A stretch of DNA of 38,677 nucleotides from a virus (taxonomy: Duplodnaviria > Heunggongvirae > Uroviricota > Caudoviricetes): the IMG/VR virus record IMGVR_UViG_3300045988_139913; one strand, written 5' to 3'. This document shows positions 509 through 31,668 of this stretch, piece by piece; within the stretch, counting starts at the first letter, position 1, and each line of letters starts with the position of its first letter. Under the pieces are notes generated by a model that did no database searches, had not been told where the DNA came from, and worked only from the letters and a program-made list of their open reading frames with translations. The translations under genes were made by a program, and so were the position numbers.

Positions 509-1604
509 TGCTCTGTTCAGAAGTAAATCACTGGAGAATCCTTCCACCCCGATAACCGGTGATGCCGTTGATACTGATGGGCTGTTCCGGGCAGACGTTT
601 ATGTCAGTCCTGAGACTGCGATGAAACTGGCTGCGGTGTATTCCTGTATCTATGTCCTGTCTTCCAGCCTTGCCCAGATGCCGTTGCATGTTATGCGCAG
701 GCACAAGGGGAAGGTTGAACCCGCACGCGATCATCCGGCGTTTTATCTGGTTCATGATGAGCCCAATACCTGGCAAACCAGCTACAAATGGCGCGAACTG
801 AAGCAACGTCACATCCTTGGCTGGGGGAATGGGTATACCTGGGTGAAACGTAATCGTCGCGGTGAAGTCATATCCCTGGATTGCTGTATGCCGTGGGAAA
901 CGACGCTGATGAATACTGGTGGCCGATATACCTACGGTTTGTACAACGAATATGGGGCGTTTGCGATCAGTCCGGACGATATGATCCACATCCGTGCGCT
1001 GGGTAATAATCAGAAGATGGGGCTGAGTCCGATTATGCAACATGCCGAAACAATAGGCATGGGGATGAGCGGTCAGAAGTACACAGAAAGCTTCTTCAGC
1101 GGTAATGCCCGTCCGGCGGGGATAGTATCCGTTAAAAGCGGACTCAATAAGGAAAGCTGGGGCTGGCTTAAAGATCAGTGGCAGAAGGCATCGCAGGCGT
1201 TACGCCGCCAGGAAAACAAAACCATGCTGCTGCCAGCCGATCTGGATTACAAGGCACTGACTGTGTCGCCAGTTGACGCTCAGATCATTGACATGATGAA
1301 GCTGAACCGTTCAATGATCGCCGGTATTTTCAATATTCCTGCGCACATGATTAATGACCTCGAAAAAGCCACCTTCTCCAATATTTCTGCGCAGGCGATT
1401 CAGTTTGTCCGCTACACGATGATGCCGTGGGTGACGAACTGGGAGCAGGAGCTTAACCGTCGCTTGTTTACCCGCGCTGAGTTAGCCGCCGGGTATTACG
1501 TCAGGTTCAATCTGACGGGGCTTTTACGCGGAACTCCGCAGGAGCGCGCGCAATTCTATCACTTCGCTATTACCGATGGATGGATGAGCCGTAATGAGGC
1601 CCGC
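498..1604 (+). pseudogene. Portal gene of the flanking phage (HK97-like family), 5' portion, interrupted by the Mu-like insertion
   Basis: ORF-track ORF 450..1607; likely GTG start at 498 preceded by AAGGGGG; C-terminal region ...LLRGTPQERAQFYHFAITDGWMSRNEAR is portal-like; reading frame is cut by the prophage end at 1605, whose TGA supplies the stop. Confidence 0.65.
1600..1604. repeat. Target-site duplication CCCGC (right-end side of prophage)
   Basis: CCCGC immediately outside the prophage terminus; identical 5-mer at 38582..38586. Confidence 0.8.
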
Positions 1605-1700
1605 TGAAGCGGCGCACGAAAAGCGCGAAAGCGTTTCAAATAAAATACGAAAACTCAAAACTTTCGCGCTTCAATTGAGACAGTTGTTTTATGTATGTCA
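1605..1700. other. Prophage right end (attR) with transposase-binding repeats (R1-R3 region)
   Basis: TGAAGCGGCGCACGAAAAGCGCGAAAGCGTTTCAAATAAAATACGAAAAC with repeated CGAAA motifs, as in the Mu right end. Confidence 0.75.
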
Positions 1701-2144
1701 GTTTCGTTTACATTTATACGTCTTAAAAATATTCACATCATCTCGGATATAAAGATTTTTTCCTGATTTATCAACGATAAAATACTTTATAACCGCAGGA
1801 TTTCTAGTCAAAGCATAGAGATAATCAGTCCCTTTAATCTTTTCATCCTTGTCTTGTTCGTCAATTTGGCCTGTTTCTATCTGAGTGTATAGTTCACCTG
1901 TATCAAGGTCTGTCCATGACCCCATATCAACGCCCATATGCATACGAATACCGTGGCAGGTCCAAAAACCAGAGGCAGGGGCTTTATTTGCAACACTCTT
2001 ATCTGGATCTATCCCGGCGGACCTTAAGACTGCATCAGCAGCCACTTCAGGATCAAAATCTTTTTCTTGAGCGTGATTGACTGAGGAGGCGGTTAGTACG
2101 AATAGGCTGATGATGGTACTGATTAGCAATTTTGATTTTTTCAT
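1698..2144 (-). CDS. Secreted/periplasmic protein of unknown function (148 aa); moron between mom and attR
   Basis: N-terminal Sec-type signal peptide MKKSKLLISTIISLFVLTASSVNHA; own GGAG RBS; strongly AT-rich relative to flanking phage DNA; two Cys (C63, C146). Confidence 0.7.
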   Translation of the reverse strand: MKKSKLLISTIISLFVLTASSVNHAQEKDFDPEVAADAVLRSAGIDPDKSVANKAPASGFWTCHGIRMHMGVDMGSWTDLDTGELYTQIETGQIDEQDKDEKIKGTDYLYALTRNPAVIKYFIVDKSGKNLYIRDDVNIFKTYKCKRN

Positions 2145-2188: not shown

Positions 2189-2926
2189 CTAATCAGAACT
2201 GCTTTTTGGGTATGGCTGAATCCTGAATAGTTTGGTATTTAGCCGCTTTCTTGCTCGCTTGTTCAGGAACCTGATGTAGCGATACTGATTAAATTTGTGC
2301 ACCACGGCACGCTCTTTATTAGCCCGTAAATACATGCCTCGTTGTCCACCGCGCTTAATTGCGTTCATCGTTATCTCGTGATACCACTCACCATCCAGCT
2401 CGTAGAACGTGCTTTCATGGCTGCCAATAAAATCAAAATTTGACGCCTGATACACAACGCCAGCACGTCCGCAGCGTTCGTCTGCAAAAGACTGAACCCA
2501 CTCCACTGACGGATACAGTAACCTTATGGTTTTCAGTGCATAACTGATGGCCCGTGATTCAGAGTTGCGGGGCATGTCGTCGTGTAGCCACATGCGGTTC
2601 AACTCCATATAGCCCCGGTTATCCGTTTCAAGCACGACACGACGACCAGAGTTGGGGTTAAGGGCATATCCCCACTGGAGAACGCCAACCAGATCGCGTC
2701 CGCTGAATACTCCCAAGTGGAGGTAAGAGTTATTCACAAAACGGCGGGAATAGTGCTTTGTCTGAATAATTGTGCGGGCCAGCCAGCAGGATATGGTTTC
2801 AACGCGCAGCTCCTTTGAACCATAGCCAACAATCTGGCTTTCATACTCAATAACGCACGGTTTCGTCAGAATGCGTGATTTCTTCTCTTTTCCCACAATG
2901 TTTCTCCGTGGGATGCTCGCAGGCAT
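2189..2926 (-). CDS. mom: Mom DNA-modification protein
   Basis: Overlaps the 3' end of com as in Mu; last gene before the right end region; true start uncertain (ORF-track start is the longest possible). Confidence 0.8.
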
Positions 2927-7607: not shown

Positions 7608-8680
7608 TCAATTGTCCCCGGTGTTAACAGTTCCGTATTCTCCGAACGCTGGATCTCTGTCGGGAAACGCACTTCAAAATCATCCAGACCGGTAACACCT
7701 GCCACCGCACGGATAATACGGGAGGGGGCAAGTGCGCCGCCCGGCGTCACCTCATTAAAAAACATGGTATTAATGGCGTGAGTAATAGCCTGTTTCAGTT
7801 CGGCTGTCTTCGGTGATATATAAATCCGTGGATTTACCGGCTTTGCCTTTGGCGCAAATACCGTGACATTTACACCATCAGGCTGCCCGACAATCAGGCC
7901 GGTTATCGGGTCAGTATGACCGGCGATATAATCCGCCACACGTTCCACATCTGCCGGTTGTGGAAAAATATTGATCCGGTTATCCATAACAAACGTCACC
8001 CCGACTGTGCCACCGCCTTTCCATGTCGGAAAACACCAGGCACGGGTAACGCCGCTGACTTCACGTGCCCAGCGGACGTAATCAAACTGATTACCGCCGA
8101 ACGGAGGATACTGGACACGATATTCCAGCCGTGACAGCAGCTCCGCTGCACTCTCAATATCTGCCCCACCGGAAAACCCTTTTACAGTGATGGCATCGGA
8201 AACAACACAGGCAACCGGGGTGATCAACGTTAAAAGGGTATTCTCACCGGTATTTCCTGCTTCACCGGCAGCCAGTGCGGTAACGGTAATTTCCGTCGTT
8301 CCTGCACGGTCAATCACAATGGCATCAGCCAGGCTGTAAACCACACCATCAGCACGCTGCCAGCGTGTACCGGCAGGAATGGTGGTCGCTGCCGATGTGG
8401 TGACAGTCAGCGGGCCGCTGGCGGCTGTCGCCTGTTTGCGGCGCACGCCCCAGAACCGGCAGTGCTCCAGCAACTCATCTTCATCTGCTGTCGACGGGAT
8501 AATCTGCCGTCCAACCCATGAAATATGCTCGTGACAACCGGCAGCAAGGCCTGCCTGAGCATAAGCAATGGCACTCAGCGTTTTTTCACGGGCCTGAGGC
8601 CAGCTACCCGGCAGGCGCTGTTCAATATTCTGTTCTGTACGGGCAATCAGCGATGATAATGTCGGTGGTGAATAAGCCAT
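7598..8680 (-). CDS. R: Baseplate J-like protein
   Basis: 360 aa; position and size as Mu gp47. Confidence 0.75.
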   Translation of the reverse strand: MAYSPPTLSSLIARTEQNIEQRLPGSWPQAREKTLSAIAYAQAGLAAGCHEHISWVGRQIIPSTADEDELLEHCRFWGVRRKQATAASGPLTVTTSAATTIPAGTRWQRADGVVYSLADAIVIDRAGTTEITVTALAAGEAGNTGENTLLTLITPVACVVSDAITVKGFSGGADIESAAELLSRLEYRVQYPPFGGNQFDYVRWAREVSGVTRAWCFPTWKGGGTVGVTFVMDNRINIFPQPADVERVADYIAGHTDPITGLIVGQPDGVNVTVFAPKAKPVNPRIYISPKTAELKQAITHAINTMFFNEVTPGGALAPSRIIRAVAGVTGLDDFEVRFPTEIQRSENTELLTPGTIEWL

Positions 8681-29352: not shown

Positions 29353-29742
29353 TTACAGAAGTGAGGGCTGGTACTGGCGGTATTTCAGCCGTCGCATCCG
29401 GCGAATGGCCTTGTAAACCGTATTGAAAGTGACACCATAACGGGTGGTCAGTTCGCTGACGTTGCGACCGTTAAAATCATTCCAGATACGCAAATCCCGA
29501 ATCAGCGAGTCCAGAACCTGACCGCGTGGAATGTAGACCTGACCGCCGCCCAGATGCTTACAGATAGCCACAACAATCTCCAGTGAATGGGCAGGATCAA
29601 CACCCAGTCGGGACAATTCCCCGCGTAGTAAATCGTTCAGCTCCGCCAGCAGTGCCGGAAAGCGTGACGTATCCTCTGCGGGATTGTCAAGATGTGCCAG
29701 GATGGTGTCATCCTGCAAATCACCAAATAAATCTTCCGTCAT
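29353..29742 (-). CDS. mor: Middle-operon activator Mor
   Basis: 129 aa; C/Mor family; downstream of gemA as in Mu. Confidence 0.9.
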   Translation of the reverse strand: MTEDLFGDLQDDTILAHLDNPAEDTSRFPALLAELNDLLRGELSRLGVDPAHSLEIVVAICKHLGGGQVYIPRGQVLDSLIRDLRIWNDFNGRNVSELTTRYGVTFNTVYKAIRRMRRLKYRQYQPSLL

Positions 29743-30290
29743 TGTGCCATCCTCCGTGTCTTTCTGGCATGGGCATAAGCCGCCGTCATGGCATCATAGC
29801 CGCGCAGTTCACGACCGGACGGACTGACCGGCAATGGAAGCCCGTGACGGGAAAAGGCTTCACGAATACAGCGGATGTGCCACTGTTTGAGTGTTTCGAG
29901 GACTGTCAGCAGCGTGTCGCCATGACACCACGCCAGTGTGGAAACACCCTGTCCGCCGTTGCGTTTCGCGGTCAGGCGTTGAACATATCTGTCCAGCGCC
30001 ACATCACCGCCATCGGTAATAAAACCGTCTTCTGCCATCTGCTGCCAGATTTTATACACCTTCTCGCGGGGTGTGACATGTTCCTTAAAGCGGCGACGGG
30101 GGTATTTATTCAGCTTCTTAAAGCCGCGTTCTTTCATGGCATCGAGCACCTGTTCCAGTTGCGTAACCGTAAGCTCGCGGCAACTGATTTTGCCCGTTTT
30201 CTGCATCAGAAAAGCGCGGTAAGTGTCGTCGTCGAGTTGTAGCTCCCGACGGGCGACATGGATTAATTTAATCAGGGATGTGCGACTCAT
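29739..30290 (-). CDS. gemA: GemA
   Basis: ORF-track ORF 29739..30533 trimmed to MSRTSLIKLIHVARREL... with GGAGG RBS; upstream extension is low-complexity junk. Confidence 0.8.
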   Translation of the reverse strand: MSRTSLIKLIHVARRELQLDDDTYRAFLMQKTGKISCRELTVTQLEQVLDAMKERGFKKLNKYPRRRFKEHVTPREKVYKIWQQMAEDGFITDGGDVALDRYVQRLTAKRNGGQGVSTLAWCHGDTLLTVLETLKQWHIRCIREAFSRHGLPLPVSPSGRELRGYDAMTAAYAHARKTRRMAQ

Positions 30291-30309
30291 GATCGTACCT
30301 CCGGAAAGA

Positions 30310-30329
30310 GGCGGTGCTGCAACACCGCC
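30310..30329. other. Short hairpin between gemA start and the divergent acidic ORF
   Basis: GGCGGTG-CTGCAA-CACCGCC. Confidence 0.3.
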
Positions 30330-30359
30330 ATATTCAGTAATAACATAAAAGGAAATATT

Positions 30360-30719
30360 ATGGCTGAACAAGAACAACATACGGTGTCGGATGATGAACA
30401 AAACCCAGATTTCGAAACAAACCAGAAAGACACCCCTGTTAATAACCAGGATAAATTCTTTGGTATAACCGGTTTTATGCTGGTCGGTAATCTGATGATT
30501 AAGCTGATTGAAAACGGTGTTATCAACATGCACGATGCTTATGACATCATCAGAAATACACAGGCCAGCTATAAGAACCGAAAAACGTTCGAAGAACTGG
30601 ATTTTGAGGCCGATGAGTATGTTGATCTGCTGCTCAATAAGCTCTGGGCTTCAAGGCAGGATATTGTTAATGCCGGGAACCTCTCATCAGAGCACACAGA
30701 TACTGACGCTGTGGAATAA
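30360..30719 (+). CDS. Opposite-strand acidic protein (119 aa) of unknown function
   Basis: ATG with AAAGGA RBS; highly acidic, hydrophilic product with one hydrophobic stretch; AT-rich codon usage; minus strand of this stretch has no plausible ORF. Confidence 0.5.
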   Translation: MAEQEQHTVSDDEQNPDFETNQKDTPVNNQDKFFGITGFMLVGNLMIKLIENGVINMHDAYDIIRNTQASYKNRKTFEELDFEADEYVDLLLNKLWASRQDIVNAGNLSSEHTDTDAVE

Positions 30720-30972
30720 CCGCTGAATCATCAACGCCAAGCTCACGACAAACAATATTGTTGTGGGCTTTTTTGTTATGCAACAAAACTTCGTCGCGTA
30801 TGAGATGAATTTCCCGTGTCATAATTTCAAGGGCCTCTCTCGCAGAAAAGCCTTTACTGATTGCAGTCTCAATAACATCGCGCATACGCTCAAGCATCTT
30901 AGCTTTCACCAGTTCTTCATCCAGGTCTTTAGGCGTAAATTTAGTTTCATTATTCATATTATTCACCTTCAC
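30667..30972 (-). CDS. Early-region protein (101 aa)
   Basis: In-series with early operon; 3' end overlaps the plus-strand acidic ORF by ~50 nt. Confidence 0.55.
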   Translation of the reverse strand: MKVNNMNNETKFTPKDLDEELVKAKMLERMRDVIETAISKGFSAREALEIMTREIHLIRDEVLLHNKKAHNNIVCRELGVDDSAVIPQRQYLCALMRGSRH

Positions 30973-31141
30973 AATTCATGCACGCCGTGTCATCGCCCAT
31001 ATCGCAGTGGTTGCATTTCTGCCCGCCACAATGAGGGCACTCTTTCAGATATTCAGGAGATTCATTACCGCAGGTCGGGCATTCCTGTTTCACCGTGGTA
31101 AATTTCCCCAGCCACGAATACGATGTTTCATTGTTTTTCAT
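30959..31141 (-). CDS. Small zinc-ribbon protein (60 aa)
   Basis: CPTCG...CPHCGGQKCNHC...CMNCEG; 8 Cys in 60 aa. Confidence 0.55.
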   Translation of the reverse strand: MKNNETSYSWLGKFTTVKQECPTCGNESPEYLKECPHCGGQKCNHCDMGDDTACMNCEGE

Positions 31142-31668
31142 TGTTTTCCATTGTTTACCTCCGCCTGTTTTTGCGCCCGGATAAATTCGTCAGAAAGGAT
31201 TTCAGTCATGCGGCCTTGTGCGGGTGTCATCCCCGTCATGACGTAAATCACATCACCAACACGGAACCACTGGAGCGGCCCGAATATTGTTGCGCTGAAA
31301 TCCAGTCCCAGTGCGGGTAAAAGAGCGTCTGTGCGGGCGTAAGTGACCGGAATATTCTCCTGCCATATTTTCGCCAGCTCTCTTGCCTGCTCCCTGAGAT
31401 GAGCAGGTATCCGTGAAGTTCTGGGCCTGCAACTGTTACCTGATGCGGGCCGTTGTACGGTCCACAGCTCCCGCGAGAAGGGGCGCTCATTCCCCGGAAA
31501 ATTCACGCCATGAAAATGACGCCCACCAATACCTGTGCTGAATACTGACCGGCAACCACAGCCCAGAACCTTATCAAGATGGCGGGCTTCTTCGCGTAGT
31601 TTCAGGCAGTCCGCCATAAACTGGTCCCATGCCAGCAGTGCTGCGGAATTTGACGTTTTAAAAAACAT
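31138..31668 (-). CDS. Early-region protein (176 aa)
   Basis: ORF-track ORF 31138..31707 trimmed to Met overlapping upstream stop. Confidence 0.55.
   Translation of the reverse strand: MFFKTSNSAALLAWDQFMADCLKLREEARHLDKVLGCGCRSVFSTGIGGRHFHGVNFPGNERPFSRELWTVQRPASGNSCRPRTSRIPAHLREQARELAKIWQENIPVTYARTDALLPALGLDFSATIFGPLQWFRVGDVIYVMTGMTPAQGRMTEILSDEFIRAQKQAEVNNGKQ

Follow-up and report, generated by a model that had tools for sequence, protein, structure and literature searches.

Does an open reading frame (ORF) that runs against the early operon of a Mu-like phage encode a protein, and if so, of what kind? The question is raised by positions 30,291–30,719 of a 38,677-nucleotide stretch of viral DNA (IMG/VR record IMGVR_UViG_3300045988_139913), referred to here at its full length as the window. 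In this interval an earlier note, made from the sequence alone, had described a plus-strand ORF of 119 amino acids (aa) next to gemA and had proposed that it is a novel gene for a small acidic protein, possibly a DNA mimic or another anti-defence factor. We followed up this proposal by computational analysis. The window represents a Mu/D108-type transposable phage in reverse orientation, with the early operon on the minus strand, and GemA (PF06252) and Mor (PF08765) were identified, one on each side of the region. The region 29700–31400 was 100% identical to Escherichia virus Mu_3F6 and 97.6% identical to phage D108, while phage Mu matched its flanks only, in two pieces with 64% query coverage. 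Judged from sequence comparison, the 119-aa opposite-strand ORF is a genuine protein-coding gene, namely the D108-type allele of Mu gene 15. It was found with an ATG start and with exactly the protein sequence quoted in the earlier note, and together with its predicted expression signals it is located as follows.

30360–30719, plus strand: gene 15, D108-type allele, with ATG start, encoding 119 aa; the ORF is identical in D108 and annotated in Mu_3F6
30349–30353, plus strand: Shine–Dalgarno (SD) sequence AAGGA, 6 nt before the ATG, as read from the sequence
30739–30779, plus strand: predicted intrinsic terminator with a 13-bp stem and a T-run, 20 nt past the gene 15 stop codon and within the coding sequence of gene 14

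To identify the coding strand, the DNA of five lineages, with 56–66% nucleotide identity, was aligned without protein information. The +1 frame was the only frame free of internal stops in all five lineages, with a ratio of nonsynonymous to synonymous substitution rates (dN/dS) of 0.34–0.45. The antisense −2 frame, which is that of Mu_54, an ORF annotated on the early strand, gave a comparable ratio, yet it contained stops; a low dN/dS is expected in this frame because its wobble positions are shared with the +1 frame. The frames beneath the ORF, which the earlier note had dismissed as low-complexity junk on the minus strand, indeed had stops or were not conserved as ORFs in relatives. Loss of the ORF in relatives together with conservation of a minus-strand protein, the pattern that the note had named as an argument against its own proposal, was not seen, the plus frame being open in all five lineages.

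The ORF is also accompanied by its own predicted signals for translation and transcription termination. The ribosome-binding site (RBS) mentioned in the earlier note was identified as the AAGGA listed above, and AGGA, GAGG or AAGG was present approximately 4–9 nt before the ATG in all lineages, despite their diverged leaders. Downstream of the gene, a consensus scan detected a plus-strand terminator in all six lineages, with its start 20–50 nt past the stop codon; for Mu, the corresponding terminator is also a TransTermHP prediction. Four pairs of the terminator stem showed compensatory double changes across five lineages. When the pairing was scored on each strand, the share of paired cells was 92% on the plus and 80% on the minus strand, a difference that arises because G·U pairs turn into A·C mismatches on the other strand. 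In the window, the stem likewise folded more stably on the plus strand (−17.2 kcal/mol) than on the minus strand (−10.8 kcal/mol). A search of Rfam gave nothing near threshold. These comparisons delimit a gene 15 unit that is nested antisense within the early operon and consists of its own predicted SD sequence, ORF and plus-strand terminator.

The earlier note knew of no opposite-strand gene in the Mu early region, but the public records list one. The RefSeq record of Mu (NC_000929) includes Mup15/gp15 (NP_050619, phrog_8747), a protein of 88 aa encoded at exactly this position, on the opposite strand, between gemA and gene 14. The SfMu counterpart, gp16 (YP_009152202), lies at the same site and on the same strand, a Yersinia phage also carries the gene, and the NCBI pipeline (PGAP) has called WP_000431116 and WP_021560934 at this site and strand in prophages of Escherichia coli. 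The 119-aa ORF itself is already annotated in Mu_3F6 as VUD37876.1 and has its own PHROG family, phrog_38610. What is new is thus a rare allele; the gene family itself was already annotated, yet without an assigned function, and no paper on gene 15 was found in the literature searched.

That the 119-aa protein and Mu gp15 belong to one small family is supported indirectly, by three independent lines: the PHROG matches, the existence of intermediates and an identical position in the genome. Both proteins matched phrog_32893 over the same core, with E = 5e-7 for the D108 type and E = 6e-4 for Mu gp15. An exhaustive search of 1.84 billion representatives with a hidden Markov model (HMM) of the joint profile, which presupposed the alignment of the D108 and Mu types, returned just 14 clusters, bridging members included. 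The bridging proteins P0009–P0015 (E = 5e-9 to 4e-4) aligned with both types, and the intermediate clusters, of 79–91 aa, resembled both, as in the case of P0010 (MSDNNQDKDFDLAAFLLTGNIMVTLVEKGVIDMREAYSIIRETQSALK...YIDRLFTLLWD). A related-locus search with a narrower family alignment gave one locus. The core shared in the family alignment reads [FY]-[DG]-x-A-G-[FY]-x-[LI]-x-x-x-[LI]-x-x-x-L-[VI]-x-x-x-x-I-x-x-x-[ED]-[AG]-x-x-I, and the D108 type is distinguished in this alignment by an acidic insertion of 26 aa after the start codon. The family thus delimited consists of helical proteins of 80–119 aa, and the members in identifiable prophages were all in Mu-like prophages of enterobacteria. As for the most distant member, P0016 (metagenome contig, 98–386), its membership is weak (E = 8e-4 in an independent search) and its context is different: it adjoins a 235-aa ORF, and a convergent 53-aa ORF overlaps its 3′ end.

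Compared with each other, Mu gp15 and the D108 type share the position between gemA and gene 14, the opposite strand, the 3′ overlap with gene 14, a gemA spacer of equal length with the same palindrome, the downstream plus-strand terminator and, via the intermediate sequences, the core motif. They differ in sequence, with about 13–23% identity depending on the alignment, and in size and charge: the D108 type has 119 aa, a net charge of −15 and a longer acidic C-terminal part, whereas Mu gp15 has 88 aa and a net charge of −1. The D108 type is also much rarer, being present in 1 of 5,426 complete E. coli genomes against 27 for the Mu type.

Several observations weigh against this reading of the locus. 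The direct comparison between the D108 and Mu types was weak, with no significant match in BLASTP and, for inputs with almost no sequence diversity, E = 0.17 in hhalign. Very close pairs gave no purifying signal, with approximately four nonsynonymous and one synonymous change between Mu and SfMu, and two and none, respectively, between the window and L012, counts so tiny that they are too small to interpret. The arms of the terminator fall in codons for conserved gene 14 residues (NKKA...RELG), and part of the stem conservation may therefore be protein-driven. With respect to transcription, the consensus scan found no sigma-70 promoter on the plus strand. The best upstream scores in a position weight matrix (PWM) scan were 4.1–7.0, with a chance rate of about 2.6 to 18 per kb and positions that were not conserved, and no lineage had an above-chance sigma-70 promoter upstream of gene 15. 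Since no promoter was found, plus-strand transcription is deduced from the terminator and the SD sequence only, and the missing promoter is the main gap in our argument. Expression data for gene 15 were likewise not found in the literature searched. Finally, the updated Mu record AF083977 dropped gp15 and replaced it by Mu_54, a 55-aa ORF on the early strand (7960–8127 of AF083977, corresponding to 2197–2364 on the minus strand of the Mu locus).

Two alternative readings can be built on these observations. In the first, the functional product is RNA: the plus-strand transcript would control gene 14, or read-through into gemA–mor, by an antisense mechanism, and the ORF would be incidental. The lack of a purifying signal between very close relatives, the conservation of the terminator and of the overlap with gene 14, and the dispensability of the gene (see below) are all compatible with such an RNA, but it is very unlikely to be the whole product, since the frame stays open in five lineages at the divergence given above while other frames gain stops, dN/dS is below 0.5, an SD sequence is kept in every lineage and the core is conserved at the level of single residues. 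In the second, the early strand codes, as annotated for Mu_54 inside gp15, and the plus-strand ORF is its shadow. The lowish dN/dS of the −2 frame, with wobble positions in common with +1, may be cited in its favour. However, stops interrupt the Mu_54 frame in two lineages, window/D108 and Salmonella, and what it would encode is of low complexity. Of the minus-strand ORFs that lie beneath gene 15 in the window, one is the gemA frame read through and the other, of 80 aa, spans the gemA RBS. Coding by the early strand is therefore extremely improbable. The comparative evidence thus bears on the conflict between the RefSeq record (gp15) and the updated GenBank record (Mu_54) and favours gp15; in view of the stops in the Mu_54 frame, the exchange made in AF083977 does not look justified.

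The surroundings of gene 15 provide further evidence on the nature of the unit. The neighbouring features in the window are the following.

30667–30957, minus strand: gene 14 (96 aa, phrog_6075), the convergent partner, with its final 53 nt inside the 3′ end of gene 15
29739–30291, minus strand: gemA (Pfam PF06252), which follows the cassette in the early operon
30310–30329, no strand assigned: perfect palindrome GGCGGTG-N6-CACCGCC, between the gemA SD sequence and the gene 15 leader
30330–30930, no strand assigned: AT-rich cassette (41.5% G+C, limits approximate), in which Mu and D108 differ while the flanks match closely

Gene 14 extends over 101 aa from a mechanically called GTG start and over 96 aa from the ATG at 30957, the start used in the D108 record. 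The earlier note had estimated that the two convergent ORFs overlap by about 50 nt and had suspected that one of the two calls may be wrong at its end. The overlap was measured as 53 nt (30667–30719), in good agreement with the estimate, and an overlap of 39–74 nt was kept in all six loci measured. Because gene 14 belongs to a conserved family and the overlap is conserved as well, it appears to be a stable feature and not an annotation error. The order gemA (minus), a spacer of 67–73 nt, the gp15-like gene (plus) and the 3′-overlapping gene 14 (minus) was seen in Mu, SfMu, D108/window, a Klebsiella plasmid prophage (L013), Salmonella prophages (L014–16) and the L017–19 lineage; one metagenomic outlier was the sole exception to this layout among the loci with flanking sequence. 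The gemA spacer contains both the palindrome and the two ribosome-binding sites.

The public records deal unevenly with the overlapping genes. Gene 15 is missing from the annotation of the D108 record (NC_013594; locus 2161–2520), whose sequence contains the identical ORF, and gene 14 is missing from that of Mu_3F6 (locus 2520–2760). Each of the two records has kept just one gene of the overlapping pair, and our result corrects the annotations of Mu, D108 and Mu_3F6.

The tight association of the two genes suggests another possibility, that genes 14 and 15 form a toxin–antitoxin-like or mutually regulating pair, with antisense control through the overlap and one protein neutralizing the other. 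The genes are adjacent and 3′-overlapping in every lineage that bears gene 15, one E. coli prophage (L011) has lost both of them, and both proteins are small and helical, the single-sequence AlphaFold2 (AF2) model of gp14 being a helical hairpin. However, the Yersinia phages vB_YpM_3 and vB_YpM_23 lack gene 15, keep gene 14 intact and still form plaques (PMC10434027). It follows that gp15 cannot be an essential antidote to gp14, an argument that covers only this assignment of roles within the pair. In addition, the two proteins did not co-vary, the window gp15 being nearest to Klebsiella (49%) and the window gp14 nearest to Salmonella (50%). Scans with Pfam, NCBIfam and the PADLOC defence and toxin–antitoxin models gave no meaningful match for gp15 or gp14, and in PHROGs both proteins matched families of unknown function only. 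Overall, we consider a pair of this kind to be improbable.

As expected from its AT-rich codon usage in the earlier note, the G+C content of the gene 15 ORF was low, at 42.2% compared with 51.8% for the whole window and 54% for gemA. In a three-way DNA alignment, Mu and D108/window matched near-perfectly up to the palindrome and again from the first codons of gene 14, and approximately 600 bp between these points were diverged. The G+C content of this segment was 41.5%, against 52%. Among the 5,426 complete E. coli genomes mentioned above, the flanks were detected in 31–32, of which 27 had the Mu-type and one the D108-type core. In other E. coli Mu-like prophages, the flanks alone were conserved.

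Natural losses and disruptions of gene 15 were found at several loci. In the prophage of E. coli FDAARGOS_1058 (L011, 1985–2005), a clean deletion that runs from codon 4 of gene 15 into the first codons of gene 14 has removed both genes and left gemA approximately 100 bp from gene 13. In vB_YpM_3 and vB_YpM_23, the gene 15 SD sequence and roughly the first 68 codons are lost; the deletion (L023, 1035–1050 in vB_YpM_3) comprises about 200 bp, has the microhomology ATCA at its junction and includes the leader. A Salmonella prophage (L022, 2736–3944) carries an insertion sequence, with a transposase matching Pfam Transposase_mut, at the 3′ end of gene 15, between genes 15 and 14, resulting in an aberrant C-terminus of gp15 (P0007), and PhiR68_1 has different genes at the gene 15 site. 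In view of these losses, gene 15 is a dispensable accessory gene, and the comparison of the loci identifies gene 15 and its convergent partner gene 14 as an AT-rich, exchangeable and dispensable cassette.

Morons are accessory units of phages, rich in A+T, that sit within an operon, bring their own expression signals and are often expressed from the prophage. Gene 15 resembles them (cf. PMC7067206) in its low G+C content relative to the phage, its own predicted terminator, its dispensability and its exchange as a cassette between close relatives, and it differs from them in that neither the consensus nor the PWM scan identified a promoter for it.

We then analysed the protein itself. With 24 D+E against 9 K+R, a net charge of −15 and a pI of 4.28, the 119-aa product is as acidic as the earlier note had described. 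It consists of a disordered acidic N-terminal tail (aa 1–29), the family core (roughly aa 33–73), and an acidic C-terminal helix and tail. An AF2 model based on a 13-sequence alignment showed residues 1–29 as disordered, followed by helices at 30–51, 57–72 and 75–109 that form a plain three-helix bundle; the mean predicted local distance difference test (pLDDT) score was 69, with 84–89 for the core blocks. No informative match was obtained among structural neighbours in PDB or BFVD, and the comparison of the gp15 sequence with solved structures gave noise only (best E = 0.15). A transmembrane reading of the first helix was considered and rejected: the most hydrophobic 19 residues scored about 1.5 on the Kyte–Doolittle scale when calculated by hand, the segment contains N and K/R, and the corresponding Mu-type segment is clearly amphipathic.

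This architecture bears on the proposal that gp15 is an anti-defence DNA mimic, an acidic protein that would imitate DNA and block restriction or another DNA-binding defence early in infection. Its overall charge, the concentration of acidic residues in the N-terminal tail and the C-terminal third, and the location of its gene within an exchangeable AT-rich accessory cassette would suit such a role. However, the net charge was −7 to +1 in eight gp15 relatives, and the extra negative charge of the D108 type is contributed by its unique N-terminal insertion and its C-terminal third, which are lineage-specific additions outside the conserved part; the conserved core is neutral and hydrophobic. 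The acidity is therefore not conserved across the family and lends the proposal no family-level support. Mimics of the Ocr and ArdA type present a conserved acidic surface array on a rigid fold, whereas the acidic residues in the gp15 model lie largely in low-confidence or disordered segments. Taken together with the lack of an informative structural neighbour, these results make a DNA-mimic function doubtful, and we assign it a low probability; an anti-defence activity as such is conceivable, but none of the results points to mimicry of DNA. Of the interpretation given in the earlier note, a real coding gene opposite the early operon has thus been upheld, based on the open and constrained frame, the SD sequence and the terminator, while novelty and the DNA-mimic role have not.

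Based on these results, we regard it as probable that the D108-type gene 15 is a real gene forming a self-contained antisense unit, possibly a lysogeny-phase moron, and that it encodes a partner-binding protein. The early transcript from Pe arrives at gemA and mor only by running through the gene 15 unit against its orientation, and mutual interference of gene 15 and early transcription would follow. Over about 110–120 nt, corresponding to the last part of gene 14, the two RNAs would be complementary. Being antisense to the early operon, gene 15 is not expressible from Pe together with the early genes, and the synthesis of gp15 would fall mainly into periods of Pe repression, in lysogeny or during its establishment, in the manner of a moron. 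No enzymatic or DNA-binding signature was detected in gp15, and neither fold nor family matches indicated a function. Most likely, gp15 would bind another protein through its conserved helix–loop–helix core, and the variable tails, strongly acidic in D108, would tune the contact with this partner.

A more specific version of this model, which we put forward only tentatively and think rather unlikely in all its parts, is that the cassette is a fast-evolving lysogeny module. In that case, gp15 would be produced exclusively at times of Pe silence and would serve as a superinfection-exclusion, defence or counter-defence factor or as a brake on leaky gemA–mor expression, the convergent units would switch gp15 off at induction, and the acidic tails of the D108 type would reflect a changed target.

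A comparable arrangement is known from the Pseudomonas transposable phage Fc02, in which the exclusion genes olg1 and gene 10 overlap on opposite strands and the repressor-strand genes are transcribed in the lysogen (PMC9936078). In both systems, small genes overlap on opposite strands within the early or immunity region of a transposable phage. The Fc02 genes adjoin the repressor gene and ner, whereas gene 15 adjoins gemA, and the likeness is an analogy only. Our analysis places a compact antisense unit within a classic model operon, just upstream of gemA and mor, which start the middle phase, and this unit is a candidate for transcriptional interference or for an accessory function expressed from the prophage.

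The palindrome between gemA and gene 15 was also analysed. The short hairpin mentioned in the earlier note was recovered at 30310–30329 as GGCGGTG-CTGCAA-CACCGCC, with a free energy of −13.9 kcal/mol on the plus strand and −15.0 kcal/mol on the minus strand (z about −4 relative to shuffled sequences), indicating stability on both strands. In a comparison of the window, Mu (L002, 2111–2130), L005, L013, L014 and L017, the 7-bp arms were identical in these six lineages; the loop varied, as did the sequence towards gene 15. On the early (minus) strand, the palindrome is followed by a short T-rich run, TCTTTCC in the window and CTCTTTTTC in Salmonella, and in the Mu record it falls within a stretch labelled 'semi-early promoter'. 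A class II activator site was rejected, because a centre near −42 would put the transcription start within either coding sequence. Possible roles of the palindrome are protein binding, partial termination and, as a hairpin, mRNA stabilization.

Some minor observations concern the adjacent genes. The gemA frame is open for approximately 80 codons 5′ of its ATG, giving a mechanically called 264-aa ORF with a GTG start (window 29739–30533, minus strand). A longer GemA was rejected as an artefact, the 5′ extension being the antisense of gene 15 and apparently of low complexity. In two Salmonella Mu-like prophages (L014 and L015), a second opposite-strand ORF (1552–1887, plus strand; 111 aa), without a match in Pfam, was found on the other side of gemA; in view of this ORF, antisense insertions in this region may not be unique to gene 15. 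An extra gene of 102 aa lies between genes 14 and 13 in SfMu, some E. coli prophages and the Yersinia phages, and is not present in Mu or D108. Its positions in three loci are as follows.

L005 (SfMu), 1465–1773, minus strand: extra 102-aa gene
L010 (E. coli prophage), 2574–2882, minus strand: extra 102-aa gene
L023 (vB_YpM_3), 1342–1650, minus strand: extra 102-aa gene

This gene, too, points to this part of the early operon as a hot-spot of accessory genes.
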